A stretch of 64,000 nucleotides of DNA from a virus (IMGVR_UViG_3300034420_000109:1-64000), one strand, 5' to 3'. Counted from the stretch's first letter, positions 4,002 to 57,042 are shown. The notes: generated by a model not told the origin, from the sequence alone. Numbers and translations: made by a program.

Positions 4002-5075
4002 TCACGAATCCTGGGTGGGGGGCAGCGGGAGGCCAGCGTCAGCCAGCAGGGCCGGGGAAACCGAGGGGAGGCTGGGGCCCGGGGATAGGGCGGCGCCACC
4101 GGCCGCGCGGCGCGCGTCGGCCCGGGAGAGCACCGCCGAGGCCCCGGCAAGATAGCCCTGGAACGTCGCCTTGGATTTCTTGGACAGCGGATCCCCGAAG
4201 AACACGTCCAACCCCTGGACGTAGCCGCGCTGCACGTTCTCGTCGTGCTCGAGGTAGAGATGCAGGCAGGCCGCGAGAAGGCGGGGGTTGTGGCCAGACC
4301 TCACACGAGCCAGGAAGGCCTCGGCCCAGGGCTTCGGCCGGGCACCAGCAACCCCGCCCTTCTCGCGGAGGCTGGCGGACATGCGCTCGACGTGATCCGA
4401 ACGCAGAGAGACCGCCTTCTCGAACCACTCGAGGTGCTCCGGGTTGGCGAACAGGTCCCGGTAGGACGGCGGGGTGGACGGCGGGACCTTCTCCCGGGGG
4501 GTGCGGGCCGGGCGCTTCGTGGGCGCCGGTTCTGGCACGAGCGGTGCTACGCGCGCACACGGGGTAGGTACTTCTTTACCTAAAAGATTCTCTACACCAG
4601 TCATGGAGGTAGGGGGTGTGGGGGAAGGAACCAAGGGCGAACTGATGCCTGGAGAAGAAGGGGGAACCGCATGACTTGAAAGCCGGTTGCTGCGTTCGCT
4701 GTGCGCTGGCTGTGCGCTGGCTGTGCGTTCGCAGGAGTGCCCAGCCTTGTCGTGACGAGCGCGGGCGGCGACGGAGGCGGCCCGGCTTCGGCGGTTCCTC
4801 GCCTCCATCCCGGCTTCGAGGGCAGGGACCTCAATCGACCCGCCGGAGTAGCGGAGGAAGGGGGCGATCTCCGCCCAGTGTCGCAGGACCTCGGCCTCCT
4901 CCAGGAGGGCCAGCCTCGAGGCCGCTGAGGGGTCGTCGGGGATCGGGCCCCGCGTGGCGAAGGCAACCCACAGCGAGGCCAGGACGCCCCGCGCTTCCGC
5001 CCCCATGCCCCACCAGTGGCGGTCGGCAGCCAGGGCGGCAGCATCGAGGGAGAGGGGGGCAGCGGACAGGGTCAC
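4002..5075 (-). CDS. Replication initiator (lambda O / YdaU-DUF1376-like N-terminus)
   Basis: N-terminal M..EARGVL..LW....GPIPDD helical domain, low-complexity linker carrying DNA repeats, C-terminal helical domain; directly upstream of dnaB. Confidence 0.68.
   Translation of the reverse strand: MTLSAAPLSLDAAALAADRHWWGMGAEARGVLASLWVAFATRGPIPDDPSAASRLALLEEAEVLRHWAEIAPFLRYSGGSIEVPALEAGMEARNRRSRAASVAARARHDKAGHSCERTASAQPAHSERSNRLSSHAVPPSSPGISSPLVPSPTPPTSMTGVENLLGKEVPTPCARVAPLVPEPAPTKRPARTPREKVPPSTPPSYRDLFANPEHLEWFEKAVSLRSDHVERMSASLREKGGVAGARPKPWAEAFLARVRSGHNPRLLAACLHLYLEHDENVQRGYVQGLDVFFGDPLSKKSKATFQGYLAGASAVLSRADARRAAGGAALSPGPSLPSVSPALLADAGLPLPPTQDS
4689..4730. repeat. Iteron-like tandem repeats inside the initiator gene (putative origin)
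   Basis: GCTGTGCGCTG at 4698 and 4709, GCTGTGCGTTC at 4720, partial GCTGCGTTC at 4689; AT-richer tract at about 4566-4600. Confidence 0.55.
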
Positions 5076-5377
5076 TGGCGAACTCCAGGGGCAGGGTGGG
5101 TCCCGAGGCCCAGCACCAGGATGGAGCAGACGATGCGCGGGTCGAGCAGGGCGTCGAGCTTGACCCGGTGGACACGGCAGAGCCCGGCGAGCGAGAGCAC
5201 ATCATCGCGGGTCCAGGGGATGGTGCCAGCGATGCGGCCCGAGAGGCTGGTCTTGGACTTCAGGCCCATGTGGATGCGAAGGAGAGAGGACCCCCCGCAG
5301 GCATCCGCCAGGGCCAGCCAAGGGGCGGGCCAGAGCGGTGGGCGGCCAGACGGGCGGCCAGAGAGATCGGTGGACAT
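5072..5377 (-). CDS. Putative HTH (Cro-like) regulator
   Basis: GRPPLWP..W.ALADACGG..LL...GL.SKTSL..RI helical pattern; resembles 58432..58830. Confidence 0.5.
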   Translation of the reverse strand: MSTDLSGRPSGRPPLWPAPWLALADACGGSSLLRIHMGLKSKTSLSGRIAGTIPWTRDDVLSLAGLCRVHRVKLDALLDPRIVCSILVLGLGTHPAPGVRQ

Positions 5378-5383
5378 GGGGCC

Positions 5384-5650
5384 TCAGAAGGGAATGGGGG
5401 TGAACGTGCAGCGGCACCGGCAGCAGATCTCGACCTTGGTGGGACCGAACTCGGTGGTGAAGGAACGGGAGGGCGACGGGCGCCAGTCGTGGCTGTAGTT
5501 GAAACCGCGCTTGTCGCAGCACTTCAATGCCTGCTTGGCATACCGGCGGCGCCACTTTTTCATCCGCCGGGCCGTGATCTTAACGCGGGGCCGGTCGAAC
5601 CAGGCGACGATGTGGTCTCCGGTGGGGGTGAGGGGGTGCAGCGGCCTCAC
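5384..5650 (-). CDS. Basic, Cys-rich hypothetical protein (88 aa)
   Basis: GTGA coupling at 5647-5650; CC...H...CCRC. Confidence 0.55.
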   Translation of the reverse strand: MRPLHPLTPTGDHIVAWFDRPRVKITARRMKKWRRRYAKQALKCCDKRGFNYSHDWRPSPSRSFTTEFGPTKVEICCRCRCTFTPIPF

Positions 5651-5778
5651 GAGCGGAACCAGCGGAGTGCAGCGTCGAGCAGGCGGTCGCGCAGGTGGCG
5701 CACGTCCGCGAAAAGGATCCGCGGGAGCCGGGTGGGCTTGCGGCGGTCGAGGTCGGCGAGGGACACGAGGGACTCCAT
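5647..5778 (-). CDS. Hypothetical protein (43 aa)
   Basis: MESLVSLADLDRRK...; TGATG overlap with the upstream gene. Confidence 0.5.
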   Translation of the reverse strand: MESLVSLADLDRRKPTRLPRILFADVRHLRDRLLDAALRWFRS

Positions 5779-5912
5779 CAACGGGGGGAGGGGACAAGGC
5801 CGACGTGCTCGGCCGTGCAAGAGAGGGCATCGGGGCCCAGCGCGATGATGGCCACCGCGATGGCGCCCAGCACGACCCAGAGGAAGACCTGGCAAGCCCG
5901 GCCGCGCTTCAC
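5778..5912 (-). CDS. Small membrane protein (44 aa; absent from the ORF track)
   Basis: VKRGRACQVFLWVVLGAIAVAIIALGPDALSC...; GTGA coupling. Confidence 0.55.
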   Translation of the reverse strand: MKRGRACQVFLWVVLGAIAVAIIALGPDALSCTAEHVGLVPSPR

Positions 5913-42760: not shown

Positions 42761-45634
42761 ATGCCCATGCTCCACGACGGAATTGATGACTCTGAATCCA
42801 TCGGCAAGGCTGACGTGGGCCCCCAGGAAGACGAGAACCGAGCGATCCGAGCGAGCATGAAGACCCCCCAGGCACACGGCCGCCACGAGTTCCGCGCGGC
42901 GAAGTGGACGGCCGGGAACGGACACCCACGGTGCCTGGTGTGCGGGGATGAGGAACCGCAGGGCGGCATGTGCGCCGGGCTCCACGGCGCCGTCCCCACG
43001 AACGGGGACAGCATGGCTCAGGTTGCGAAGGGCGAGCCGTCGGAGGCGCAGCGGCGCGCCGGGAACTACCCCAAGACGCACTGGCAGATGCACGGGATGC
43101 GGATCGCCATCGAGAACCTCGCCGGGACCACGCGGAGCGGCGTGGACCACAAGGGCGAGCCGTGGTCGGTGGTCATGCCCTACCACTACGGATACATCAA
43201 GGGCACCGAGGGGGCGGACGGGGACCACCTCGACGTGGCCATCGGGCCGCTCATGGGCCAGGGCACCGAGGCCCACATCATCAACCAGCGCGGGCCGGAC
43301 GGGGAGTTCGACGAACACAAGGTGTTCATTGGCTACCCCAGCCGTCAGGCAGCCATCAACGCGTTCAGGGAGGGGCGGAGTGACGACCCTGACGAGGTTA
43401 TGGGGGCCGTGATCACCGTTCCCATTGACGAGCTGAAGCGGTGGGTTGACGAAGGATGCCTCCAGGAAGAAGCGGTGCTGAAGGCGGAGACCACGCACGT
43501 AAAGGCGCACTACCGGATCCAGAACGGCCGCGTGGTCTACATCCCGAACTACGACCGGGAGGTCCATGGTGACCACCCCGAGGCCACCCTTCACCAGCGG
43601 ACGGTGCTGGGGACGAACACGGCCGGGATCCCGTTCATCCGGGCCACCGATGCCGCGGACAGGGAGAAGGTCCTGGAGGCGGCCCGGTCCCTTGGGGTGC
43701 ATCCGGAGACCCAGCGGCCCAGCGGAGCGAATCACCACGGGCGCCAGAATTCCTACCCGACCATGTTCTTTGCCACCTACGAGCAGGCCCAGCAGGTCAT
43801 GGATGCGGTGCGCGCGCGGCACGGAGACGTGGCGCATCCGCACACCACGAGCGCAGCCCCAACCCGGGGGCGCGGTGGACTGCAGGCGGCGCTGGCGGCC
43901 CACAACCAACGGCGAGACGCAACGCGAGCCGCCGTGGTCATCACCTCCGTCCAGGCGGCAGCCCACGAGGAATCACCCGATGCGGTGCTGGCGAGTGCCA
44001 TGGAACGAACTGGCGCCGACGCGGTGCGACGTCGGTTCTTTGGGACGGCCCCGGCGGGAGTCCTCGACCGAAGGGTCTACCTGGAGAACACCACCCCAGG
44101 CCACAACAAGCTCTACGTGATCGACCTCCGACAGGTAGGGGAGGGCCAGTGGGTGGTGAACGCGGGAAACGGGCGAATTGACGGCCGGAGCATGACCGTC
44201 CGGACGAAGACCGACCGGCCCATGTCCCAGGCCGCAGCCAATGCCCTGGTGAGTCAGATCAAGGCGGAGAAGATGGGTGGCGGATACGTCTCCGTCGAAG
44301 ACAGCGCCAGCCCCAGCCGCCGATACAGGTTCACCATGATGGACAATTTCAGCCACCCGATGGTGAACAGCACCACTCCCCTCGCAGGGGAGGCGCACCG
44401 GGGCCCGGGCGTCTCGGTTCAGACCCCCGCGCGGCCTGCTGCTACACCTGCACCGACCCCAACCAGGGCCCCCACGCCAGCTGCACCGGCCGCTCCTGCT
44501 ACACCAGCACCAGCGCGCGCGGCCGGGAGCACGGCGGCCCAATACAGCGCCCTCCGAGAAGCCGCATGGAACGCCGGGAACGTTGCCCGAAACACGACCG
44601 CGGACAACACCCCCGCATCATTCACGGCATCCATGGCCGCCCACCGGGCCCACCTTGCCGCAGAGCAAGTGGCGCGCGCGCTCGGGATCCCGGAGGCGAG
44701 TGACCGTGGCGCCGTGTGGCACAGCAACCGGGCGCAGCACTGGCTCCAGCACGCGAAGCAGCAATGGACCGGGGCCGTAACCCCAGCCCTTGCCCGCAGC
44801 GGGACCAATTCTGCCGTCGCCAATGGGTATGGGTTCGCGGACGCGGTGCGGGCCCTCGAGGGGAGTCAGAACATCCTGGCCCAGCGCCCCCCGGGGGCAG
44901 CCCTTCCGAGCGGAGTCACGGAGGCGAGCTACACCAGCGCGGTGGCCAACCACGACGCCAACCTCAAGTCCCTCCGAATCGGGCACGAAATTGAACAAGA
45001 GATCCGGCCAGGGACCACGCCAGGGGCCCAGGCTGCCGGTGTCACCAGCACGATCATGGACCGGATCACCCGGGGGACCATCCCCCACGAGCATGCTGCC
45101 CCGGCCACCCGGATCGTCGAATCCATGCAGAATCTCCTCAACGCGGCGAACGCGGCCCGGAACATGGCTGAAGACCCCGCGGCCGAGCCGGACACGCTGA
45201 AGGTGGTCGCTCGCACGGTGGCTGCGATGCACACGGCTGCAACCACGGCGATGACGGCCGCGCCGGAGGCCATTCTGTGGCGGAATGCCCCGAAACGAGT
45301 GGTTGAAGACCTGGCGAAGTTCGGGGAGAAGGCGAAGCGGGAGGCAGACCGCCGGGCAGCCATGCCCCGGAAGTCGGATCCGCGCTACGCCACCGGGCAC
45401 GAGCAGCACATGGAGCGCGCGGCCCAGGCGCACTCGGAGGCCGTCGGAACCAACGTGCAGCGGCCGAAGCTGATCCGAGCCATCGACGCCCACAAGCAGG
45501 CGGCCGTCTCGGTCTACCACGCGGCCCTGGCGGCCCCGAAGGGATCCCGAGAGAGGACGCACCTGATGCAGAAGGCCCAAGAGCACGCCCAGCACGCCCG
45601 GGACTTCGTGGGCAAGCTGAATGCGCGGAGGTAG
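42761..45634 (+). CDS. Polyvalent-type protein: Zn knuckle, InPase domain, HVxxHxR module, WGR domain, helical His-rich C-terminus
   Basis: InPase GNY.K.H...G..I.IEN..G..RSG.D..G..W.V.M..HYGYI.GT.GADGDHLDV..DEHKV; WGR YLE....NKLY.I...GRI....K...GY. Confidence 0.8.
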   Translation: MPMLHDGIDDSESIGKADVGPQEDENRAIRASMKTPQAHGRHEFRAAKWTAGNGHPRCLVCGDEEPQGGMCAGLHGAVPTNGDSMAQVAKGEPSEAQRRAGNYPKTHWQMHGMRIAIENLAGTTRSGVDHKGEPWSVVMPYHYGYIKGTEGADGDHLDVAIGPLMGQGTEAHIINQRGPDGEFDEHKVFIGYPSRQAAINAFREGRSDDPDEVMGAVITVPIDELKRWVDEGCLQEEAVLKAETTHVKAHYRIQNGRVVYIPNYDREVHGDHPEATLHQRTVLGTNTAGIPFIRATDAADREKVLEAARSLGVHPETQRPSGANHHGRQNSYPTMFFATYEQAQQVMDAVRARHGDVAHPHTTSAAPTRGRGGLQAALAAHNQRRDATRAAVVITSVQAAAHEESPDAVLASAMERTGADAVRRRFFGTAPAGVLDRRVYLENTTPGHNKLYVIDLRQVGEGQWVVNAGNGRIDGRSMTVRTKTDRPMSQAAANALVSQIKAEKMGGGYVSVEDSASPSRRYRFTMMDNFSHPMVNSTTPLAGEAHRGPGVSVQTPARPAATPAPTPTRAPTPAAPAAPATPAPARAAGSTAAQYSALREAAWNAGNVARNTTADNTPASFTASMAAHRAHLAAEQVARALGIPEASDRGAVWHSNRAQHWLQHAKQQWTGAVTPALARSGTNSAVANGYGFADAVRALEGSQNILAQRPPGAALPSGVTEASYTSAVANHDANLKSLRIGHEIEQEIRPGTTPGAQAAGVTSTIMDRITRGTIPHEHAAPATRIVESMQNLLNAANAARNMAEDPAAEPDTLKVVARTVAAMHTAATTAMTAAPEAILWRNAPKRVVEDLAKFGEKAKREADRRAAMPRKSDPRYATGHEQHMERAAQAHSEAVGTNVQRPKLIRAIDAHKQAAVSVYHAALAAPKGSRERTHLMQKAQEHAQHARDFVGKLNARR

Positions 45635-45637
45635 GCC

Positions 45638-47056
45638 ATGGCAGCCGTCGCCGAAAGGCCCGCCACCCATCAAGAGAAGCGGCACGTAACCGGGCACTAC
45701 CGGACCCTGCACACGGGGAAGGTGGTCTACGTCCACGATTTCAGCGCCAGCCACGCCATCGCCAGCCACAGCCGGAGCGCACACCTGCACGAGCGGTCGG
45801 TGCTGCTGCAGAACAGGAACTCGATCCGCGTCTCGAACGCGGCGGACCTCCGCGCCATGCAGACGGCCGCGCAGCGGGAGGGGGTGGAGTTCACCCGCCG
45901 CCGGGCAGGGGCGAACCACCACGGGCGCCAGGGGGCATACGACCACCTCGACTTCCAGACCCCCGAGGCGGCCAGCAGGGTGATGGAGCACGCGCGCCTG
46001 GCGTTCGAGGGCCACAACGCCCCCATCGAGGGCCAGGGACCTGCCCAGGAGCCACGCGAACCCCGCGCGCGCGCCGTCCGACCCCCCGTCCACCCCCAGG
46101 CCGACCTTGGGCCCCAGGAGGGGGCAGACAACGGCCCGGACACGGACCCGGCACCTGCGCCTGCAGCCGCCCGCCCCGCCGCGACCGAGGAGCCCGTGGA
46201 CGTGGACTCCCAGTTCGCCCGAATCTTTGGTGAGCGCATCGAGACCCCTGCCCCGGACGCGGAAGAGATCGGAGAGGCCTTCGAGGCCATCTTTGGGAAG
46301 CTGCCCAGCATTGAGCCACAGGTCCACGTCGTGAGCGCAGCGGACGCGGGAAGGGTCAGCCAGGCCGGGGGCTTCACCGAGGTGACGTTTGACTCGTCGG
46401 CGATTCAGATCTGGAACGCCCACATCAAGGTGGATCCAGCAATCCACCTGGTGGAGATCTACAAACACTTCGGGCCCGGCGGGAGCATGCGAGTTAGCGG
46501 CGACGGCGGCAGCGGACTGACCATCACCTACAACAACAGGACCCGCGCCGGGAACTGTGAGATTACCCGGCACTACAGCGGCCTCGGAGGCCCCAACTCT
46601 GCCGTAAGCCACTCCTATTTCCAGGTGCCATCTGGCAATCAGGGGGAGAACCAGGGCAAAAAGCTGTTTGCAGCGTCCATGGACTTCTACGAGAAAATCG
46701 GCATCAAGAAGATCACCGTCCACGCCAATATCGACATCGGATCCTATGCGTGGGCACGTTACCGATTCGTCCCGAACGACGCCCGGCACTTCGGCGTGAT
46801 TAAAACAGCGGTCGGCAGGTTCAGGCTGGCCCAGACGTGGCTGCGCGACTTCCCTGAATTCAAGCGGGCCATCGAGGGGGCCGACCCCAAGGGCGCGTGG
46901 GTGATCGCGGACCACATCTCGGACCAGATCCGAGCGGGCAAAATGACGAGAGAAGAGAACCCGATGAAGAACCTCCACTGGTATGGGCACATCGACATGA
47001 CGAATGCAGCCCACGTTCGGAAGGTGCGAGAATACGTGGGCAGGGGGGCGGCATGA
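45638..47056 (+). CDS. Putative virion-associated protein with C-terminal GNAT-like acetyltransferase
   Basis: N-terminal HVTGHYR module; C-terminal VSHSYFQV...QGENQGKKLF....YEKIGIKKITVHANIDIGSYAWARYRF. Confidence 0.65.
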   Translation: MAAVAERPATHQEKRHVTGHYRTLHTGKVVYVHDFSASHAIASHSRSAHLHERSVLLQNRNSIRVSNAADLRAMQTAAQREGVEFTRRRAGANHHGRQGAYDHLDFQTPEAASRVMEHARLAFEGHNAPIEGQGPAQEPREPRARAVRPPVHPQADLGPQEGADNGPDTDPAPAPAAARPAATEEPVDVDSQFARIFGERIETPAPDAEEIGEAFEAIFGKLPSIEPQVHVVSAADAGRVSQAGGFTEVTFDSSAIQIWNAHIKVDPAIHLVEIYKHFGPGGSMRVSGDGGSGLTITYNNRTRAGNCEITRHYSGLGGPNSAVSHSYFQVPSGNQGENQGKKLFAASMDFYEKIGIKKITVHANIDIGSYAWARYRFVPNDARHFGVIKTAVGRFRLAQTWLRDFPEFKRAIEGADPKGAWVIADHISDQIRAGKMTREENPMKNLHWYGHIDMTNAAHVRKVREYVGRGAA

Positions 47057-47247
47057 CCCAGGAGAAGGGCACCGAAGGGTTCTACCTCGACGAAGAGGGA
47101 CAGCCGCAGGACCGCGACCTCCACGGGGACTGCCAGCCGGAGAACATGGCCGGGTTCAACCGCGAAATGTGGATCTGGGGCCTCGAGGCGGGATACGAGC
47201 CCGAAGGCTTGACCCGTCTCTACGGCCCCAGGCCCGAAGGCGTCTAG
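47053..47247 (+). CDS. Small acidic protein (64 aa; absent from the ORF track as a separate gene)
   Basis: ATGA-coupled to the GNAT gene; MTQEKGTEGFYLDEEGQ...FNREMWIWGLEAGY. Confidence 0.7.
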   Translation: MTQEKGTEGFYLDEEGQPQDRDLHGDCQPENMAGFNREMWIWGLEAGYEPEGLTRLYGPRPEGV

Positions 47248-47249
47248 GC

Positions 47250-48296
47250 TTAATCCTCGAGGCGCTGGCCCCAGAGGCCCCGGCGTTCCACCTGCTGGCG
47301 CCGGGGCCTCTTGTTCTTCCGCGTCACCTCGGGCCACGCCTCCTCGCTCCCCCACCGGCTCTGGTTGGGCCGGGAGAGTTCACGGACGACCATCTCCTCG
47401 GGGATCGGCAGGCCGTAGACGCGGCAGGCCTCCCGGAAGGTGTTCAGGTGGAGGGCCAGCACGGGGTCGATGCCGGTGGAGCCGCCCCGATGGTAGCCGC
47501 CCGCCAGGTTCCAGGCCACGGGCAGGGCGAAGTCCTTGCACAACTCGAAGACCATCCGGTCCCGGGCCCGCATTTCCTCGGTGCTGATGTAGCCACCCAG
47601 GGGGTCGCACTCGTGGGGATCGGCGCCAGCCTGGTAGAGCACCACGTCGGGGTGGAAGTCGGCGATTTCCACCAGGAACTCCCGGACCTTGTCGATGTAG
47701 CCGCCGTGCCGCGCCCCGGTCTTTCCGACGGTGCGGTGGAGGATCTGCCCGCCGGGGACCTGAAAGCCACCCTTGGACGAGACGGAAGAAGACACATGCC
47801 GGAGGATCTCGTCGGTGCCGTCGCCATAGTGGGCATCGCAGTCCAGGATCGCCACCCGGCGGGCCTTCCCCTGGGCCAGCAGCGCGAGGGCGGTGATGGC
47901 GAGGCCATTCAGGGTGCAGAACCCAGAGGCCCGGCTCCAGCCCGCGTGGTGGAACCCGGAGGAGAGGGACACGGCGGGCATGGTCGGGGTGGCGGCCAGG
48001 GCGGCCGAGAGCATGGAGCCGGAGGTGTAGGGGAGCGACCGGGCGACCCGGAGGTCGGCGTTTCCGAAGCCGTTCTGGGCCTGGCCGGACAGGATCCTCT
48101 CTACCCAATGGGCATCGTGGGCCCGGGTGAGTTCGGCGAAGAGGAGGGGGCGGGGGCCCACCACCCGAACCGGGAAGCGGCGCGCGACCAGGGCCTCGGC
48201 GACGATGGCGGGCTTCCCGGCGGACGGGGAGAAGTGGGTCATCCCGGGAACGGCCTGCTTGGGGGAGTAGAAGACGGGGATCAAGGGGGTGGACAT
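47250..48296 (-). CDS. Zn-dependent histone-deacetylase-family (AcuC/AphA-like) deacetylase
   Basis: AHD..W, GFHHA....SGFC.LNG.A, ILDCDAHYGDGT, YQAGADP..DPLG, LAGGY. Confidence 0.93.
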   Translation of the reverse strand: MSTPLIPVFYSPKQAVPGMTHFSPSAGKPAIVAEALVARRFPVRVVGPRPLLFAELTRAHDAHWVERILSGQAQNGFGNADLRVARSLPYTSGSMLSAALAATPTMPAVSLSSGFHHAGWSRASGFCTLNGLAITALALLAQGKARRVAILDCDAHYGDGTDEILRHVSSSVSSKGGFQVPGGQILHRTVGKTGARHGGYIDKVREFLVEIADFHPDVVLYQAGADPHECDPLGGYISTEEMRARDRMVFELCKDFALPVAWNLAGGYHRGGSTGIDPVLALHLNTFREACRVYGLPIPEEMVVRELSRPNQSRWGSEEAWPEVTRKNKRPRRQQVERRGLWGQRLED

Positions 48297-48317
48297 TGGG
48301 GCTCCTTTGCATTACCC

Positions 48318-48345
48318 ATTATGAGCAAGGCTCACCATTTGTCAA
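48318..48345 (-). promoter_or_regulatory. Near-consensus sigma70 promoter of the deacetylase gene
   Basis: TTGACA-N16-CATAAT, then GCAAAGGAG RBS. Confidence 0.75.
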
Positions 48346-48406
48346 GTCGAAGTGATAAAAATCACTGGACAGGGAACACGAGCCCCACCTGGTCAAGTCT
48401 GCAAAA

Positions 48407-51130
48407 ATGAGAAGCATCCTGGAGGCGGAGATGAACCACTTGAACGCTATCTTCAGCACGGCCCAGCGGCTCCAGGCGAGCCGATCCTTCCTCCGGGACC
48501 TCCGGGGCCTGGACAAGACGGCCGAGGGCGCCGAGTTCGCCAAGGCCATCGGGGAGGCCGCCGCCCTGGGGGCGACCCCCGAGGACGTGGTGGAGCAGGT
48601 GGTCAAGGCCATGGCCGGGAACGAGGGGCTGGCGCTGGAGATCCTGATGGCGGTCCAGGAGATCGCCAAGGCCCACGTCGAGCACCATACCCGCACCCTG
48701 GCCAACGGGAAGACGGTGGACGTGAAGGCTTACGAGACGGCCCGGACGGGCGCGATGAAGCAGACCACCATGGCCCACGGGGCCACCTTCCACGCTATGC
48801 GGACGAAGACCCCCGAGGCCCATGAGAACGCCGCGGCAGCCCACGAGGCCGCCGCGAAGCAGCACGAGGACGCGCACGGGGTCCACCCCATGGACGTGCC
48901 GGAGGTCGGGAAGGAACACGCGAACCTGAAGGCCCAGCACCAGATGAGCGCGGATTACCACCGCCAGGAGGCCGCGACCATGCGCCACGGGCATGGATAC
49001 GAGGTCCAGGCCAACCGGGCCGTCACCGCGTCCCAGGGGACCAAGGCGGCCATCACCACCCACCAGAGCCAGATGGCCCACCAGAAGGCGGCCGAGGAGC
49101 ACAAGAAGGCCCACGAGTTCGACCCGGGCAAGGGGCACGACCAGCAGGCGGCCATGCATACGGCCCACGCCCAGGCGGCCCAGGCGGTCAACCAGTCCAT
49201 GAACTCCCCCCACCAGGGATCCGACGTGAAGGGCGCGGCCGACGCCAGTCTCAAGGCCTTCCGGGCCACGACGTATGCCCACGAGGGGAAGGGCCTGACG
49301 AGGGATGCCCACGCGGCAGCCGCCAAGGCCCACGAGGAGGCCATCAACCAGCACATGGGGATCCACGGGGCCAAGGAGAGCGACGAAGACGGCCACCACG
49401 GTCAGATCGCCAAGACCCACATGGCCCTCCACGCCTACCACTCCGCCAAGGCCCAGGCAAAGACCCCGGAGGAGGTCGCCAAGGCCCAGGTCGAGGGATA
49501 CACCCGGGTGCAGGACGGCAAGGTCATCCATGTGGGAGCCTACGACAGCAAGCGACAGGCGGCCTTCGAGGCGAGCCGGGTGGCCCACGAGGCGAGCCTC
49601 ACCGCCAAGTCGAAGACGGCCCACACCGCAGCTGCAGCCCTTCACGGGAAGGCTATCGCCGCCCACCGGGAGGCCTGGAATGTGACCAACCACGAGGGCC
49701 GCCGGTCCATGCACGATGCGAACATGGCCGAGCACGGGGACATGATCAGCGGGCACCGGGCCATGGCCACTGCCGGTGGCGGGTTCGAGGATCACCCGTT
49801 CCGGGCCCGGGCGGCCAGCAACCTCGCCCCCGACGTGGAAAGCGTCAAGCCGGGGGAGGAAGACGAGGCTGCGGCGGCCCATGATCGTGCCGGAAGCGCC
49901 CATGTCACGGCGATGGACGCAGCCGGGGCCAACCGATCCCACCACAGCAGTCAGGCTGATCAGCATGCCCAGGACGCGAGGAAGATCCGTGAGCGGAAGG
50001 ATGCTCCGAACGATGAAGACGCAGAAGCGCACGAGGAACTCGCCACGTCAGGGGGGATCGACCTATCCAAACTCGTCCCCGGCCACAACACGGAGACGAC
50101 GAGAAAATCACTCGATAGGCTTGTGAAGTTCGGCATGGCAAAGAAGGATGGCACCAGATACACGGCCACCCCAGAAGGAGAGATTGGAAAAGCCGAGGGT
50201 CCCATGACCACCCTTGGCGGCGGGACCGACCTCGCCACGAAGAGCGGCGGCGCCGCGCTGGCGGTCGAGGGCCGCCCCGGTAAGGAAGGCCGGAAGAAGC
50301 AGGACGGCATGGATTACTGCGATGCCTGCGACACCGCCTACCCGGAGGGCACCAAGCATGAGTGCCCCGGGACGGTCGCCAAGGCCCATGTCGAATCCCA
50401 CACCCGGGTCGTCGGCGGGAAGACGGTGCAGGTCCAGAGCTACGACACCCACCACGCCGCAGCGATGAAGGCTTCATTTGCCGCACAGAGCACCACCGCC
50501 CAGGCCCAGAATCCTGAGCACCACACCCATGCCGCCGCCAGCCACATGAAGGCCGCTGAGGGGCACCGCGAGGCGGCGAAATACGCCCCGGAGGACTGGC
50601 AGAAGAAGGGCCACGAGGACAACGCGAAGCTGCACGAGCACTACGCCCAAGCCCACCACGCCAAGGCGAAGGCTGCCGACCAGCGCGCGGATACCGGTGT
50701 GGACACCCCCCAGCACACCCCCCAGGACCTCAAGGAACTGGAGAACCACCACGACTATGCCGGGTTCGGATACCTCGGCCACGAACACCGAACCGACGAG
50801 ACGGACAAGCACCTCACTGATGCAGCGAACAAGGCGGGGATCTCCAAGCACGAACTCGCCGCCCATGCCCTCAGCAAGTCCGGCCGCCACATGATGGACG
50901 ACCACACGAACCTCGGGGAGAAGGCCAGCGAGGACGAGAAGGTCGCCCACTTCCAGAGGCACCTGACGAGCCCGAAGACCGCGAAGGAACACGGGATCAA
51001 GGAATACGCCAAGGACCTCGAGGAACGCGCCCCGGCGAAGCCTGCTGCTGGTGCGACGGAGCCGGTCACAGTCAAGCCCGCCACCCCAGAAAAGGGATAT
51101 CGGATCCCACCGAAGCCGACCACCAAGTAG
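48407..51130 (+). CDS. His/Ala-rich repeat protein with three KA-HVxxHxR modules (putative internal head polyprotein)
   Basis: KAHVEHHTR, KAQVEGYTR and KAHVESHTR, each followed by H..AA.AH helical repeats. Confidence 0.8.
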   Translation: MRSILEAEMNHLNAIFSTAQRLQASRSFLRDLRGLDKTAEGAEFAKAIGEAAALGATPEDVVEQVVKAMAGNEGLALEILMAVQEIAKAHVEHHTRTLANGKTVDVKAYETARTGAMKQTTMAHGATFHAMRTKTPEAHENAAAAHEAAAKQHEDAHGVHPMDVPEVGKEHANLKAQHQMSADYHRQEAATMRHGHGYEVQANRAVTASQGTKAAITTHQSQMAHQKAAEEHKKAHEFDPGKGHDQQAAMHTAHAQAAQAVNQSMNSPHQGSDVKGAADASLKAFRATTYAHEGKGLTRDAHAAAAKAHEEAINQHMGIHGAKESDEDGHHGQIAKTHMALHAYHSAKAQAKTPEEVAKAQVEGYTRVQDGKVIHVGAYDSKRQAAFEASRVAHEASLTAKSKTAHTAAAALHGKAIAAHREAWNVTNHEGRRSMHDANMAEHGDMISGHRAMATAGGGFEDHPFRARAASNLAPDVESVKPGEEDEAAAAHDRAGSAHVTAMDAAGANRSHHSSQADQHAQDARKIRERKDAPNDEDAEAHEELATSGGIDLSKLVPGHNTETTRKSLDRLVKFGMAKKDGTRYTATPEGEIGKAEGPMTTLGGGTDLATKSGGAALAVEGRPGKEGRKKQDGMDYCDACDTAYPEGTKHECPGTVAKAHVESHTRVVGGKTVQVQSYDTHHAAAMKASFAAQSTTAQAQNPEHHTHAAASHMKAAEGHREAAKYAPEDWQKKGHEDNAKLHEHYAQAHHAKAKAADQRADTGVDTPQHTPQDLKELENHHDYAGFGYLGHEHRTDETDKHLTDAANKAGISKHELAAHALSKSGRHMMDDHTNLGEKASEDEKVAHFQRHLTSPKTAKEHGIKEYAKDLEERAPAKPAAGATEPVTVKPATPEKGYRIPPKPTTK

Positions 51131-51846: not shown

Positions 51847-54800
51847 ATGTTCATAATGAGCGACTGGCAAGGCATCCCGATTGAAATCACGCGCAACCCG
51901 GGCGAATTCAAACTCGGGAAGGCTCCTACAGGGATCGGGTGGATGAGCCGGATGCGAGCATCCCAAGGCATCATCAAGGGTCTTGACGGCAATGGATTGT
52001 TCCCGACCAAGGCATGGATCGGTAAAAACAAGGAGTCAAAAACCGTCTTCGTCGTCCACCAGAGCCACGAAGACGGGGCGCACGATGAAAACAAACTCGT
52101 GCTCGGGTTCGATGACCCGGTGACGGCGGCAGACACCATCATGGCGCATTACCCGAAAGGGAAGCACCCCATCGATTCAATTCATCAAATTCCCGAGGGT
52201 GGGCTTGATGACTGGATCGCCGGGAACGAAGCCTGGGCCGCCACAGCCCATGATCATCATGGGCGCCCCCACGAGCATGGCAAAACGGTAGTGCTTTTCA
52301 ATGGAGAGCGTCTCCCGGCGGAGCCCGCCGACCTGGATCTACCAGAGGAAGTGGCGAAGGCGCACGAGCCCCAACAGCCTGGGGATCGATGGGTGACCAT
52401 GCATCCCAACGGGCCCGGGACGAAGGGGAGCCCCGTCCTTCTCCGGCCCGTGGCGGGACATCCCGGGCTGCACCGCGTGGTGGGAGGAGCCGGGGGGAAA
52501 CTGAACTTTCTCCGGGTGAATCTCACCAAGAGCCCGGACCAATACAAGCAGGAGTCCCTCGAGCGCCGGAAACAGACCCAGGCCGAAGAGAAGGCCAAGC
52601 TGGCGGCCATGAGCCCGGAGCAGCTGGAGGCCCACCAGCAGAAAGAGGCCCAGCTGAAGGAACACCGGAAGCGCGCCGAACAGGAGTTCATCAAGAAAGT
52701 CCTCGGGGATGACAGTCAGGAGGGAGAGGCCCCGGACCTCTTCTCGAACACCCCCGATGCCGATCCCAAGGCGGCGCGGGCCTACCACCGGGAGAGGTTG
52801 AAGCAGGCGCTCGCCGCATGCAAAGAGGCCGAGCGAAAGATCACCCTCGACGCCGAGACGCGGGTCGCGGCCGGGCTCGCCGAGGTGGGCGGGAGTGCCA
52901 CCCCAGGCCTCGCCATCAACGCCATCCTGACCACCAAGGAAAACCGAGGGCCGGGATACGACCGGGCCATCGCCGAGCGCGCCGTGGCGAACGGCCTGAC
53001 GGCGGAGAAGCTGACGGCCGCCAGCGCCGCCTGGCGGGAGGCCCAAGGCCTGGCGCCCAAGGCGGACCCCACCCAGCCCGGGGCCCCGCGGGATGAGGCG
53101 TCCGCGGCGGCGGCCGTCGAGATGCACACCGCGACGAAGGAACTCCGGGCCCGCCAGGCAGAGGCCACCGCCAAGGCCGTCGAGGAGGCCCTGTCGGACC
53201 ACAAGAACCTGGGGGCGCTCCTGAGAGCCCGTCAGGAACTCCGGGGCGCCTACGAGGAGGCCACGGCCGCGCGCACCGGCCGGGTCTTCGAACAGGGGTT
53301 CCTGTCCACCACCAGCGAACCCACGCCAGAGGACAAAGAGCGCCTCGTGGCCGACCTTTCAGAGCAGCTGCTGCGCGCCCATGTCCAGACCTTCCTGGAT
53401 GAGGTCGAGACCAACCACCCGGACAACGAGGGGATCAACGGAGCCTGGGACCCGAGGGAAGAGGAGGGCATGGCCGCGTCTCGTGGCGGGGCCGCGTGGA
53501 CCGCCCTGCACGAGGCCGGGCTGGCCATCTTCGGCGCCGGGCTCCTCGACCGAGACACCGTCGAGACCCTCGGGCCCGAGGCCGCTGCCCAGGTCCTGGC
53601 CAGGGGCATCCGGTCCCGGTTCAGCCCGGAGGACCAGAAAGAGATCCTGACGGCCCTGGAGAACCATCACGTCCAGGAGCAGCAGGTGGAACTCCCCCAG
53701 GCCACCCAGGAGGCCCAGCGCCTCCGGGCGGAGGCCCAGACGATGAAGGACCAGCTGCTCACCACCCCCAAGGACTTCGCGGCGGCGGCGGAGATGCACC
53801 GGACCCGTATCGAGGCGCTGAAGCAGGCCCGGACCACCCTGGGGGCGGCCTTGGGCCGGTTCGAGGCGCGCGCGGCCCTGGTCGCGGCTCTGCAGAGCAC
53901 CCCGGCGAAGGACCTGCAGGTGCCCATGGGCCGGACCACGCCGGAGCGGGCCATGCAAGCGGCGGCGGCCATGGGCCTGCAGCCGGACGGATACACCCTG
54001 GACCACAAGGGCGGGGAGGCGGTGCTGACGATCCCGGAGGCCAGTCAAGACAAGCTCCTGAAGCCGGTGGACCACGCCGCGGTGGCCGAGCGGGAACTGG
54101 CCATGAGCATCAAGCGGGGCGACATGGACGAGGCAGGCTACCTGCCCCCGGGGTTCGCCAGCCGCACTGCGAGCCGCTACGACAACCCACTCATGGAGCC
54201 CAAGGTCTTCCAGCGCCGGGTGGAACTCCCCGAGGGGGCGGACCACGAGCACCTCGAGCCCGCGCTGGCGCGCTACATCGGGCAGCGGTGGGCGGACGGC
54301 CACCGGGCGACGGACATCAACGCGGACATCCGTGGCGCCTCCATCCGAGACGAGATCCCGGCCCACCTGCACGGGGCCCTGGACAAGATCGTGGACAAGC
54401 TGGTGCCCACGCACGAACTGGTGCGGGACGACAGCGGGGAGCCCGTCGCGGAGATGCACAACGGGCAGATTCTCCGGGACACCGCCGGTGGCGTGGTCTA
54501 CAAGACGAAGATGCGGGAGCCCAAGCAGATCGCGGCCGACGTGGAGGCCATGGGCCGGAGGTTCCTGGACGCATCTGGGGACGCGGAGACCCTGGAGGGG
54601 CAGGGGGTCGATTCGGACCACCCAGACTTCAGGGAGGCGATTCATCGCACCCTGGCCGAAGACCCCCGCCTGCAGGCCGCGCACGCCCCCATCGGGGAAC
54701 TCACCGCCATCCAGCGGCAGAGCATCCGGGACTGGTTCTACCGGGAGCACCACGGGAAGAAGGGGGCCGAACTGGCGGACGCCCTCCAGGCCCTGGGCCC

Positions 54801-57042
54801 CGAACCCCCGAAGTTCGATGAGACCACCGGGGGCATGAGCCTATTTGACGACCTGGGCCCCATGGAGAGCCAGGCCTGGAACGACTGGCAGGAGAAGCAC
54901 AAGGCCATCATCGAGAAGCACGGGGACACCCCGGGCACGAGCCCGTGGGCCACCTACATCCAGGCCATGGGGGGGCTGAAGCAGGCCACGGAGGCCATCC
55001 AGGGCGAGATGCAGAGCAAGCTCGCCGAGGGGTTCCATGGCCACTACGGCCGCCTGACCGGCAAGGTGCTCCAGCTGGGGACCGGGGACATCGCGCACTT
55101 CAGCAGCCACCTCAAGGCGACGTCAGGGGCCGAGAAGGCGGCCGAGCTTGAGGCCATCCGTCGGTCAAAGCAGGCGCAGATGCAGCGCGGCGGGGCCGGA
55201 CGGTTCCGAAGCGTGAACGTCAGGGAGCGCATGGAACAGGCCGGGGAGGCTGGGCTGTTCGGACAGGGCGGGGCCCTGTTCGGATCCGAAGAACTCTCCG
55301 GCGCTGCGCCAGCGGAGGAGACCCCGAAGTGGGAGAAGCCGGAGCCAGCACCTGGTGAGCGCCTGCGCCTGGGTGGGCGGATCGAGGCGCAGATCGCCGC
55401 AGCCATGCCCCACGCGTCGGCGCCGTTCCAGAGCCGGACCCTCAAGCCGGTCAAGGTCGCCGAAGGGATGAGCATGGATGGCCGGTTCGCCCCCCAGCAG
55501 CGGGGCGTCAAGGCCTTCAACCACCTGCGGCGCATGGGACTGTTCTACGGCGCCGGGAGCGGGAAGACGGCCGTCCTGATGGGCAGCGCGTCGAGCCTCG
55601 TCCACAGCGGCAAGGGCAAGAAGATCCTGATGGCTGTTCCCAGCATCGTCCAAGAGCAATTCGCAGGGGAGGCCGCCAATTTCCTGGACCCCACCACCGG
55701 GATCCGCCTCCACGCCGTGCCCGGAGAGTCCTTCGAGCAGCGCCTGCAGGCTTACCGGGATCCCGAGCGCCACGCCGTCGTCATGACCCACGCGGCCGTG
55801 CGCGACGACTCGGTGAAGCTGCTCGCCAGCCACCGTGGGATCAGCGAAGACGCCGCGGCAGAGTGGGCCATGAAGGCCAGCGCCGAGGACCTGAAGACCA
55901 ACCTGCGTGAAGCATTCGCCAAAGAGGGGGCCAACTTCGACGCCCTGATGGTGGACGAAGGCCACGATGCCCTGAACCGCAAGGGGAAGCCGGACAGCCT
56001 CCTCGCCAAGATCATCGACGCCCACGGCCACAACGCCAGCCACTACATCGGCGCCACCGGCAGCCCGGTGAAGAACGACCCCAGCGAGGCACACGACTGG
56101 CTGCACAAGATCGACCCCGTGCGCTACCCCCGCGAGGGCCGAGACGAATTCCTGCGCCGCTACGGAACCGACAGCGCGGTCAGCCGCCGGGCACTCAAGG
56201 CCGAGCTTTCCCGCTACTTCTTCGCAGAGCGGGTGGGCAGCGGCGTGACGGCCCACCACAACGACGAGACGATCCAGCTGACGGCCGAACAGCATGCGGA
56301 CGTGGAGCGCATCGAGCGCGCCGCGGGCAAGCTGCGGCTGGGGGAGGACCCCGTGAGGTGGGCCAAGGAACTGGCCCCCCGCTCCTTCATCGGGAAGCCG
56401 GAGGAGGAGCACGCGGCCATCGCCGAGGGGGTAAAGAAGGCCGTCGGGACCTTCCGGGAGGCCGCCATGGACCGGGCCATCAACATCGGCGGCGGGAAAA
56501 TGCACGCCGCGGTGAAGAAGGCCCGGGAGGCCGTGGCCGAGGGCAGGCCCATGATCATCTTCGCCCACCGGCTAGAGGCCGTGGAAGCGCTCCACAAGGC
56601 CATGGAGGAGGCTGGCTTGCGGGTCGCCAGCATCACCGGCAAGGACTCCTCGAAGGACAAGCCGGGCAAGCTGGCCGCATTCCAGGGCGCACCTGGCCGC
56701 CAGGCCACCGCCGACGTCCTGATCGCATCCGACGCCGCTGCCACCGGGGCGAACCTCCAGCGCGCCAAGGAACTGATCCACTTCGACCAGCCGATGACCT
56801 ACAAGACCCACGAGCAGCGCACCGCCCGCATGGACCGCCTGGGCCAGACGGAGGACGTGAACGTGACGAACCTGCTGGCGGACCACGCCTACGACCGAAC
56901 CGCCCGGGAGCGGGTGAAGCGGAAGCAGACCCTGGCGGACATCTACCAATCGAAAGAAGGCTACCTGGACGACAGCGGCATCGCGCACACTCTGCGCGCG
57001 CTGCGGGCCCGGGCCGCCCAGACCAAAGAGGAGGCTGCGTGA
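51847..57042 (+). CDS. Giant polyvalent-type protein: degenerate InPase and C-terminal SWI2/SNF2 helicase (DarB-like)
   Basis: GAGSGKT, VDEGH, ATGSP, IIFAH, SDAAATGANLQ, EQRTARMDRLGQ. Confidence 0.88.
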   Translation: MFIMSDWQGIPIEITRNPGEFKLGKAPTGIGWMSRMRASQGIIKGLDGNGLFPTKAWIGKNKESKTVFVVHQSHEDGAHDENKLVLGFDDPVTAADTIMAHYPKGKHPIDSIHQIPEGGLDDWIAGNEAWAATAHDHHGRPHEHGKTVVLFNGERLPAEPADLDLPEEVAKAHEPQQPGDRWVTMHPNGPGTKGSPVLLRPVAGHPGLHRVVGGAGGKLNFLRVNLTKSPDQYKQESLERRKQTQAEEKAKLAAMSPEQLEAHQQKEAQLKEHRKRAEQEFIKKVLGDDSQEGEAPDLFSNTPDADPKAARAYHRERLKQALAACKEAERKITLDAETRVAAGLAEVGGSATPGLAINAILTTKENRGPGYDRAIAERAVANGLTAEKLTAASAAWREAQGLAPKADPTQPGAPRDEASAAAAVEMHTATKELRARQAEATAKAVEEALSDHKNLGALLRARQELRGAYEEATAARTGRVFEQGFLSTTSEPTPEDKERLVADLSEQLLRAHVQTFLDEVETNHPDNEGINGAWDPREEEGMAASRGGAAWTALHEAGLAIFGAGLLDRDTVETLGPEAAAQVLARGIRSRFSPEDQKEILTALENHHVQEQQVELPQATQEAQRLRAEAQTMKDQLLTTPKDFAAAAEMHRTRIEALKQARTTLGAALGRFEARAALVAALQSTPAKDLQVPMGRTTPERAMQAAAAMGLQPDGYTLDHKGGEAVLTIPEASQDKLLKPVDHAAVAERELAMSIKRGDMDEAGYLPPGFASRTASRYDNPLMEPKVFQRRVELPEGADHEHLEPALARYIGQRWADGHRATDINADIRGASIRDEIPAHLHGALDKIVDKLVPTHELVRDDSGEPVAEMHNGQILRDTAGGVVYKTKMREPKQIAADVEAMGRRFLDASGDAETLEGQGVDSDHPDFREAIHRTLAEDPRLQAAHAPIGELTAIQRQSIRDWFYREHHGKKGAELADALQALGPEPPKFDETTGGMSLFDDLGPMESQAWNDWQEKHKAIIEKHGDTPGTSPWATYIQAMGGLKQATEAIQGEMQSKLAEGFHGHYGRLTGKVLQLGTGDIAHFSSHLKATSGAEKAAELEAIRRSKQAQMQRGGAGRFRSVNVRERMEQAGEAGLFGQGGALFGSEELSGAAPAEETPKWEKPEPAPGERLRLGGRIEAQIAAAMPHASAPFQSRTLKPVKVAEGMSMDGRFAPQQRGVKAFNHLRRMGLFYGAGSGKTAVLMGSASSLVHSGKGKKILMAVPSIVQEQFAGEAANFLDPTTGIRLHAVPGESFEQRLQAYRDPERHAVVMTHAAVRDDSVKLLASHRGISEDAAAEWAMKASAEDLKTNLREAFAKEGANFDALMVDEGHDALNRKGKPDSLLAKIIDAHGHNASHYIGATGSPVKNDPSEAHDWLHKIDPVRYPREGRDEFLRRYGTDSAVSRRALKAELSRYFFAERVGSGVTAHHNDETIQLTAEQHADVERIERAAGKLRLGEDPVRWAKELAPRSFIGKPEEEHAAIAEGVKKAVGTFREAAMDRAINIGGGKMHAAVKKAREAVAEGRPMIIFAHRLEAVEALHKAMEEAGLRVASITGKDSSKDKPGKLAAFQGAPGRQATADVLIASDAAATGANLQRAKELIHFDQPMTYKTHEQRTARMDRLGQTEDVNVTNLLADHAYDRTARERVKRKQTLADIYQSKEGYLDDSGIAHTLRALRARAAQTKEEAA

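Follow-up and report, generated by a model that had tools for sequence, protein, structure and literature searches.

Can a virus of bacteria carry both an enzyme that places acyl groups on proteins and one that removes them? The question is raised by a locus at positions 45,638 to 48,345 of IMGVR_UViG_3300034420_000109:1-64000, a stretch of viral DNA of 64,000 nucleotides (hereafter the window), which makes up the beginning of an IMG/VR virus record of 87,976 bp; counts given for the genome refer to the whole record. A first-pass annotation, made from the sequence alone, had described here a GNAT-like acetyltransferase on a virion-tagged carrier, a small acidic partner, and a convergent HDAC-family deacetylase with its own promoter. 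Overall, the reading that we favour, with about even confidence, is that a cargo domain with the GNAT fold and its cognate partner lie beside an independently transcribed deacylase, and that the coupling between them is probable but not obligate.

The genes themselves were found where they had been drawn. On the plus strand, a 472-aa protein in two parts (45638..47056) consists of an N-terminal carrier, a Pro/Ala-rich linker and a C-terminal domain with a putative GNAT fold. Its open reading frame (ORF) overlaps that of a 64-aa acidic protein (47053..47247, plus strand; isoelectric point 4.2) in an ATGA, read directly at 47053-47056. A gap of 2 bp (47248-47249) separates the stop codon of the small ORF from that of the convergent gene, whose product is a 348-aa Zn-dependent deacylase of the HDAC family with a basic C-terminal tail (47250..48296, minus strand; ORF and PF00850 match), and no terminator-like site was found between these two genes.

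The C-terminal domain and its small partner

The assignment of the C-terminal domain (residues ~206-472; 46253..47053, plus strand) came from structure prediction and fold searches. The AlphaFold2 (AF2) model of the domain, with a pLDDT of 75, has its elements in the order beta1-alpha1-alpha2-beta2-4-alpha3-beta5-alpha4-beta6, which is the GNAT topology. All top Foldseek matches were acetyltransferases (E 2e-3), and nearly all of the top 50 matches of a VIA search, which is independent of Foldseek, were acetyltransferases as well (best Z 7.8, root-mean-square deviation 5.1, 141 residues aligned). Weak bridges at the sequence level pointed the same way: Pfam GNAT models (PF00583, PF13673 or PF13508) matched a few relatives (6 of 48 and 4 of 52), with the match in P0023 lying in the segment homologous to the domain; the best PDB profile match aligned motif A of a GNAT with an E value of 0.17; and PF00583 occurred in 20% of the members of the nearest Atlas cluster. 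After beta4, about 40 of the 48 family members carry the P-loop [Q/R]-G-x-G-x-[G/A]-K, which is the canonical loop for the pyrophosphate of coenzyme A (CoA), and a near-invariant His on beta4 is kept across the family. The window's own protein reads Q-G-E-N-Q-G-K at the P-loop and contains the invariant A-N-I-D-x-G-S-Y-A-W-A-R-Y-x-F. Taken together, these results make it very likely that the domain has the GNAT fold.

The domain belongs to a large family. Its HMMER profile matched at least 1,857 cluster representatives at E <=1e-3, 606 of them at E <=1e-10, in proteins of 150 to 6,205 aa, and at most of about 85 loci the domain stands at the extreme C-terminus. Phage_Mu_F was present on 13 of 52 longer relatives, and others carry Acb1, Zeta toxin, 2H phosphoesterase or DUF2213. 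Among isolated phages, tblastn with the domain gave only a weak match, to the minor head protein of Alteromonas phage vB_AcoS-R7M. The family is a widespread effector-type cargo of head-associated (MuF, polyvalent) proteins, and because it usually occupies the C-terminus of such proteins, the window's GNAT domain is most likely a packaged cargo that is made late. The MuF domain (PF04233) had no match on the 472-aa protein itself; the arrangement known from MuF toxins, a variable C-terminal effector followed by a small cognate gene, is present at the locus. A kinship with the GNAT of Mycobacterium phage Alice gp113, named by Iyer et al., was considered and rejected (hhalign probability 0.1). 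As a separate observation, genes for the GNAT-like domain form tandem arrays of three to four in an alphaproteobacterial metagenome-assembled genome (L215:8543-13137) and in one of Patescibacteria (L206:74-3861), which suggests an expansion of paralogues outside obvious phage contexts.

The 64-aa partner is conserved within the phage lineage of the window. We built a hidden Markov model (HMM) from the ORFs of this lineage only and ran it over the full set of ORFs (15,213) from 80 unrelated domain-bearing loci. All 21 matches lay on the same strand as the GNAT-like gene, at or just past its 3' end: 20 overlapped the end and one started 242 nt downstream. The element that they share is an N-terminal motif, G-x-E-x-[FY]-Y-[LV]-D-x2-G-x2-Q-D-x2-[LF]-H. 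When the complex of the partner with the GNAT-like domain was predicted, the ipSAE was 0.87 in three runs, compared with 0.00 for the best of three controls; the same value was reached by 58 of 80 solved complexes and by 2 of 110 mismatched pairs, counts that are rough because our own alignments were used. The runs agreed in at least 67% of contacts, and the pLDDT of the partner was at least 72. The predicted contacts place the partner's motif against the end of beta4, the P-loop and the beta5-alpha4 segment, that is, at the acetyl-CoA cleft, so the conserved motif coincides with the predicted interface. Contacts at this cleft suggest that the partner is a cognate binder and would keep the cofactor out, in the manner of the antitoxins of GNAT toxins. 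On the basis of the models, the partner probably binds the domain directly, and whether it acts as an inhibitor is evenly balanced.

The deacylase and its promoter

The convergent gene had been described as an intact Zn deacetylase with HH, D-x-H, D and GGY motifs, and this description was borne out. PF00850 matched the protein with E 1e-32 and 114 bits against a cutoff of 27.9. The residues H116-H117, D152/D154/H156, D226 and Tyr268 (AGGY) are invariant in relatives; of these, H116-H117, D154/H156, D226 and Tyr268 align with 9RJE and are unchanged in five relatives and in two distant phage HDACs. Within the phage lineage the protein is 64-86% identical. Judging from these residues, we have little doubt that the deacylase would be active.

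Regarding its class, the nearest structure is 9RJE, a clade A class IV enzyme from Chlamydomonas (E 5e-32, 114 bits); the clade B structures 9RJD/9GZ5 scored 54 bits, and the acetylpolyamine amidohydrolases 3Q9B and 3MEN scored 37-39 bits. By sequence, the enzyme appears to be class IV-like rather than acetylpolyamine-amidohydrolase-like. Its gatekeeper residue is Phe (S-S-G-F-H-H), the state of clade B, whereas clade A has Thr/Ser, and yet the best overall match is to clade A. With the class IV deacylases (HDAC11; 9RJE and 9RJD, the latter from clade B of Leptospira; PMC13325672, PMC11532494) the phage enzyme shares the PF00850 fold, the catalytic residues, the short single-domain format of ~300 aa, the G-F-H-H gatekeeper and x-G-G-Y, and it differs from them by an extra basic C-terminal tail of ~50 aa. 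Neither of these two papers mentions phages. The tail (residues ~300-348; window 47250-47400, minus strand) is rich in Arg/Lys and is absent from bacterial homologues of ~290 aa; in close relatives it reads K-R-x-R-R-Q-Q-V-E-R-R-G-L-W-G-Q, and it could serve in nucleic-acid binding or targeting.

The claim that the deacylase has a promoter of its own also stood. A sequence scan found TTGACA-N16-CATAAT, a sigma-70-type promoter with 11 of 12 consensus positions, at 48318..48345 on the minus strand. It is the sole match with at least 11/12 positions in 87,976 bp, and mononucleotide shuffles gave 0.03 such matches; it is kept in the relatives L009 and L004 and is similar in L005. A Shine-Dalgarno sequence, AAGGAG, was read directly at 48302..48307 (minus strand), 5 nt before the ATG at 48296, and five relatives share the TGCAAAGGAGC block that contains it without change. 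The 110 bp between the divergent genes also hold a perfect palindrome, AGTGAT-TTTT-ATCACT (48351..48366), which directly precedes the -35 hexamer and of which GTGA-N-TCAC is kept in L009. From its sequence the palindrome is a candidate operator, possibly for a regulator of the CRP/FNR type or for one of the phage. A search of sequencing runs listed no RNA dataset as containing the locus; four wastewater runs labelled RNA-Seq hold identical pieces of ~150 nt of all three genes, which were flagged as probably DNA and are uninformative on expression.

Homologues of the deacylase at 44-52% identity are very numerous, in bacterial chromosomes as well as in phage-like contigs, and its clade occurs in at least 122 IMG/VR contigs. 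Distant homologues are found among small hypothetical genes of the isolated phages E3 (36% identity) and Magritte (30%). The neighbours of the bacterial homologues (mfd, thiolase, AhpC, hemC, and in one case a CRISPR array nearby) gave no functional clue. Two further settings are recorded here for their own sake. In one bacterial lineage (L220-L223, genes 5001-5879) the homologue lies between a type I-C-like CRISPR-Cas adaptation module with its array and mfd, a position that is probably coincidental. On a 536-kb metagenome contig (L225, gene 5001-5843), which looks like a very large phage genome, small genes without annotation surround the homologue in a long row, and a DnaJ-protein kinase fusion is next to it.

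Linkage of the two enzymes and competing explanations

How tightly are the GNAT domain and the deacylase linked? Across the phage lineage (including L090) the GNAT, partner and HDAC genes stay together down to ~50% identity. Among the 80 unrelated domain loci, two with 37% GC that are related to each other (L026 and L035) have an HDAC gene directly or 1.6 kb upstream of a unit of carrier-GNAT and small ORF, and apart from the HDAC and the GNAT-like domain no gene of these 20-kb loci resembles the 64-kb window. The two genes also lie within 10 kb of each other in two further lineages (L157; L118/L120). The domain was present somewhere in 7 of 50 other viral records with an HDAC (14%), and pattern scans confirmed each gene in only ~120-170 of 2.9 million viral contigs. 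Given this rarity, the co-occurrence looks enriched, an estimate that is rough since it has no matched control set. The co-occurrence that the first-pass annotation had named as a check was seen within the lineage and, for the GNAT and HDAC genes, in the additional lineages just named; the majority of loci with one of these two genes lacked the other. If there is a functional link, it is a facultative one, and we rate a functional coupling of writer and eraser somewhat below an even chance.

Several known systems share parts of this arrangement. GNAT domains are a listed effector class of virion-delivered polyvalent proteins (Iyer et al. 2017, PMC5512222). Like the polyvalent and MuF-effector systems (PMC5512222; MuF polymorphic toxins, Jamet et al. 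2017, PMC5576092), the locus has large multidomain proteins beside the virion module, enzymatic cargo at the C-terminus and a small downstream gene. It differs from them in that its carrier is without a MuF domain and its GNAT domain is not detectably akin to the Alice gp113 family of PMC5512222, a paper whose text does not contain the word "deacetylase". In Salmonella, TacT, TacA and CobB form a three-part acetylation circuit, in which the toxin acetylates its partner and CobB takes the acetyl group off again (PMC5449658), and AtaT, KacT and ItaT are GNAT toxins with ribbon-helix-helix (RHH) antitoxins (PMC6698736). The locus is like these pairs in that an enzyme of GNAT fold would be neutralised through contact with a small cognate protein, a contact that is predicted here. 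Compared with TacAT, AtaRT and KacAT, the window's partner lies downstream, has no RHH/DUF1778 or other Pfam domain and carries a different motif, and the GNAT is the C-terminus of a 472-aa protein; the upstream RHH/DUF1778 gene and the stand-alone GNAT of ~160-180 aa that mark type II GNAT-RHH toxin-antitoxin systems are both missing. The structural likeness of the domain to TacT and GmvT was no better than to other GNATs. CobB is a sirtuin, whereas the window's deacylase is Zn-dependent, class IV-like and encoded by the phage.

T4 Alt and P1 Dar are capsid-packaged, injected enzymes that modify the host or counter restriction. AcrVA5 is a phage GNAT that acetylates Cas12a, which is reversible by CobB (PMC9114340), and it was among the structural matches of the domain (Z 5.4). 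All three follow the logic proposed for the locus, in which a phage enzyme would covalently modify host proteins on entry. AcrVA5 differs in being a small stand-alone protein that relies on the eraser of the host. No sequence relationship between the locus and these enzymes emerged, and packaging at the locus is deduced from its genes. The examples of TacT/TacA/CobB (PMC5449658) and AcrVA5/CobB (PMC9114340) indicate that such triads can work.

The following mechanism can be proposed. The carrier-GNAT protein would be made late, packaged, and released with the DNA into the next host, where the GNAT domain would transfer acyl groups to host targets. The N-terminal motif of the 64-aa partner would sit in the acetyl-CoA cleft and either silence the enzyme in the producing cell or serve as a handle. 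Host RNA polymerase would transcribe the deacylase separately, early or constitutively, from the lone near-consensus sigma-70 promoter, and the deacylase would strip acyl-lysine (or related N-acyl) marks in the infected cell. It may act on the acylation chemistry of the cargo enzyme, limiting or reversing its marks, or resetting an acylated partner as CobB does for TacA. In its complete form this would be a three-part phage circuit, in which the injected acyltransferase marks host or phage proteins, the motif plugs the CoA cleft in the producer cell (and is perhaps itself acylated), and the HDAC11-like deacylase, expressed from the single host-type promoter, makes the modification short-lived by removing the marks or resetting the plug. 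We consider the complete circuit rather unlikely.

A number of findings weigh against the favoured reading of cargo GNAT, cognate partner and coupled deacylase, and some of them suit other explanations. At the level of the domain, the Foldseek E value of 2e-3 and the Z of 7.8 are moderate scores, in a range that common arrangements of elements can reach, and the Pfam, PHROG and NCBIfam models miss the ~265 C-terminal aa of the window's own protein. Moreover, the P-loop of the window lineage reads Q/R-G-x-N/D-x-G-K, with the central Gly replaced by Asn or Asp, so that activity is less certain there than for the family and may be altered or lost. What survives of the original GNAT call is hence the fold together with weak sequence bridges; Pfam did not support it, and the QGENQGK loop that it had pointed to has an N for the central Gly. 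On balance we lean towards a catalytically active acyltransferase. At the level of the partner, the same motif forms the N-terminus of Zeta_toxin/AAA_33 kinase proteins of 376-636 aa in four other phage lineages, whose genes, found by motif and domain matches, directly follow the GNAT-like gene (L078:8209-10116, L022:6201-7361, L062:2671-3885, L068:7207-8403). Because of these kinases, a docking handle fits as well as an inhibitor. The small ORF, which had been placed in the position of an immunity gene, is indeed conserved, position-specific and a predicted binder, but immunity is just one way to read it. In the low-GC lineage (L026, L035), the small ORFs are akin to each other and unrelated to the window's partner family. 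A competing explanation casts the GNAT-fold domain chiefly as a docking module, and perhaps as a pseudo-enzyme, which would be anchored to the head via its carrier or MuF and grip the F/Y-Y-L-D motif of the next gene's product in a former CoA cleft, so that a second cargo (a small protein here, a Zeta-type kinase elsewhere) is co-packaged and co-injected. Apart from the motif-headed Zeta_toxin/AAA_33 proteins (in L078, L022/23, L062 and L068) and the lost central Gly of the P-loop, it draws on one relative that fuses both domains in a single chain, and on the most conserved residues of the domain (N-I-D-x-G-G-Y-A-W-A-R), which lie in the predicted interface. A pure adaptor, however, would have no need of the canonical CoA signature and the near-invariant beta4 His that are kept across the family, and a 64-aa partner with no further domain would be an odd cargo. 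We regard this explanation as unlikely.

The remaining counter-evidence concerns the deacylase. No HDAC was found within 10 kb at 78 of 80 viral domain loci or at any of the 39 loci in bacterial genomes, and no GNAT-like domain within 10 kb at 75 of 80 viral HDAC loci, whose neighbours are heterogeneous (tail sheath/tube, HNH, CobS/CobT-like, S24 repressor). Bacterial chromosomes carry the HDAC clade in large numbers, in surroundings that resemble those of housekeeping genes; the homologues at 44-52% identity are single genes there, and the HDACs of phages E3 and Magritte have no GNAT-like domain nearby and stand among small early-type genes. All of this would agree with an independent auxiliary gene, unlinked to the GNAT cargo and expressed from a host-type promoter. 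Its product would free phage or host proteins of lysine acylation that the host imposes or that arises without an enzyme, or would act on a small molecule, and its adjacency to the cargo would be a clustering of accessory genes; one study reports that the host acetylates about a third of the proteome of a phage (bioRxiv 10.64898/2026.04.27.721073). It accounts less readily for the adjacency that recurs in an unrelated low-GC lineage sharing only these two genes with the window, for the proximity within 10 kb in two more lineages, and for the domain in 14% of other HDAC records, a figure without a matched control. We take it as a serious possibility, somewhat short of an even one. It is also conceivable that the two enzymes form a polyamine module, in which the GNAT N-acetylates spermidine or putrescine, the deacylase works as an acetylpolyamine amidohydrolase (APAH), and the pair tunes free polyamine in infection or DNA packaging. 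Phages do encode functional spermidine N-acetyltransferases and giant viruses functional APAHs (PMC9992855), and class IV clade A, the clade of the nearest structure, showed no activity on acyl-lysine peptides, which leaves room for non-peptide substrates (PMC13325672). Yet the solved APAHs scored far fewer bits than the class IV enzyme, the Phe gatekeeper is that of clade B, which does act on peptides, and a cargo at the C-terminus with a protein partner is unlike the known SpeG-like enzymes, which makes the polyamine explanation very improbable. We infer the packaging, the timing of expression and all enzyme activities, and this too counts against the favoured reading.

Carrier, neighbourhood and significance

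The 472-aa protein has only 5 close homologues among 5.8 billion clusters, all in syntenic contigs of the same phage lineage. It had no match to Pfam, PHROG or NCBIfam models, and neither PHROGs nor NCBIfam matched the 64-aa or HDAC proteins. Residues 1-120 of its carrier are paralogous to residues 233-351 of the 957-aa InPase protein encoded just upstream (BLASTP 37% identity, E 1e-15). Residues 16-40 (45683..45757, plus strand) form a 25-aa module with a low-confidence predicted beta-hairpin, H-V-x2-H-x-R ... G-K-x-V-x-V-x2-[YF], so the HVxxHxR module that had been noticed at the outset does exist. A scan for H-V-x2-H/Y-x-R ... G-K-x-V-x-V-x2-Y/F found exactly 5 copies in the 88-kb genome, at 43508, 45695, 48686, ~49530 and 50399 on the plus strand, all within three adjacent proteins of 957, 472 and 907 aa; [IV]-A-K-A stands before every one of the copies in the 907-aa protein. 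The carrier continues with a small alpha/beta domain with a GANHHGRQ motif (45773..46006, plus strand; AF2 pLDDT 75-90), which is paralogous to the 957-aa protein. A fold search with the carrier returned generic ferredoxin/ACT-like matches only, with Z 5.9 or lower, and these speak neither for nor against a virion tag. The 3' half of the gene is indeed lower in GC, as had been claimed (0.61 vs 0.73). We rejected this drop as a sign of a recently swapped toxin tip: the GC content at third codon positions differs little (0.81 vs 0.89), so the drop mostly reflects amino-acid composition.

The source is an uncultured, contractile-tailed phage of 88 kb, bounded by direct terminal repeats, with an estimated completeness of 100% and 67% GC. 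Near-identical DNA was found in sediment, soil, groundwater and wastewater metagenomes; the 8.5-kb region, compared by megablast with 50,697 phage records, gave no match. Upstream of the locus, the minus strand carries baseplate J, a sheath-initiator-like gene and a capsid-like gene. A plus-strand gene run starts at 42761 with the 957-aa InPase polyvalent protein (42761..45634; PF18823 E 3e-40, and PHROG matches to DarB-like and minor head proteins), proceeds through the 472-aa and 64-aa ORFs, and resumes beyond the convergent HDAC gene with the 907-aa protein (48407..51130, plus strand; ORF call and module scan), which has three hairpin modules and is divergent from the deacylase gene. An HNH gene follows, and then a 1731-aa polyvalent protein with InPase and a superfamily 2 (SF2) helicase (51847..57042, plus strand; DarB-like by domain and PHROG matches), in which no methyltransferase domain was found. 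PF18823 thus occurs twice in one phage: the 957-aa protein has it at residues 95-229, and the helicase protein begins with it. These two occurrences, together with the helicase and the matches to phrog_10089/62, identify a polyvalent cluster. Since multidomain genes of the InPase/DarB type adjoin virion genes, the layout is that of polyvalent proteins (Iyer et al., PMC5512222), and the locus is part of a putative injected-effector gene cluster adjoining the capsid/baseplate module.

Some of this was already known: GNAT effectors in polyvalent proteins as a class, and phage HDAC homologues, which have been annotated and not studied. The assignment of a GNAT fold to a large cargo family (at least 1,857 cluster representatives) is new, as are the position-specific partner motif with its fusion to Zeta-type kinases and the recurrent but facultative neighbourhood of the domain with class IV-like deacylases. 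A literature search found no paper describing the arrangement of GNAT cargo, partner and deacylase, in line with the first-pass annotation, which knew of no characterised phage system of this kind.

Phage-injected proteins are the first weapons that host defences encounter, and the majority of their domains have no assignment. The partner motif is short and position-specific, so it is directly testable as an inhibitor or as a docking handle. Phage HDAC-type deacylases, for their part, are numerous (at least 122 viral contigs) and sometimes travel with the cargo domain. If the coupling is real, a virus of bacteria would run a reversible protein-acylation system, and the class IV deacylases, whose bacterial substrates are largely unknown, would gain a tractable biological context. 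If the three-part circuit proved true, it would be the first phage system of writer, inhibitor and eraser, and the plug motif on Zeta-type kinases would point to a general way of chaining virion cargo.

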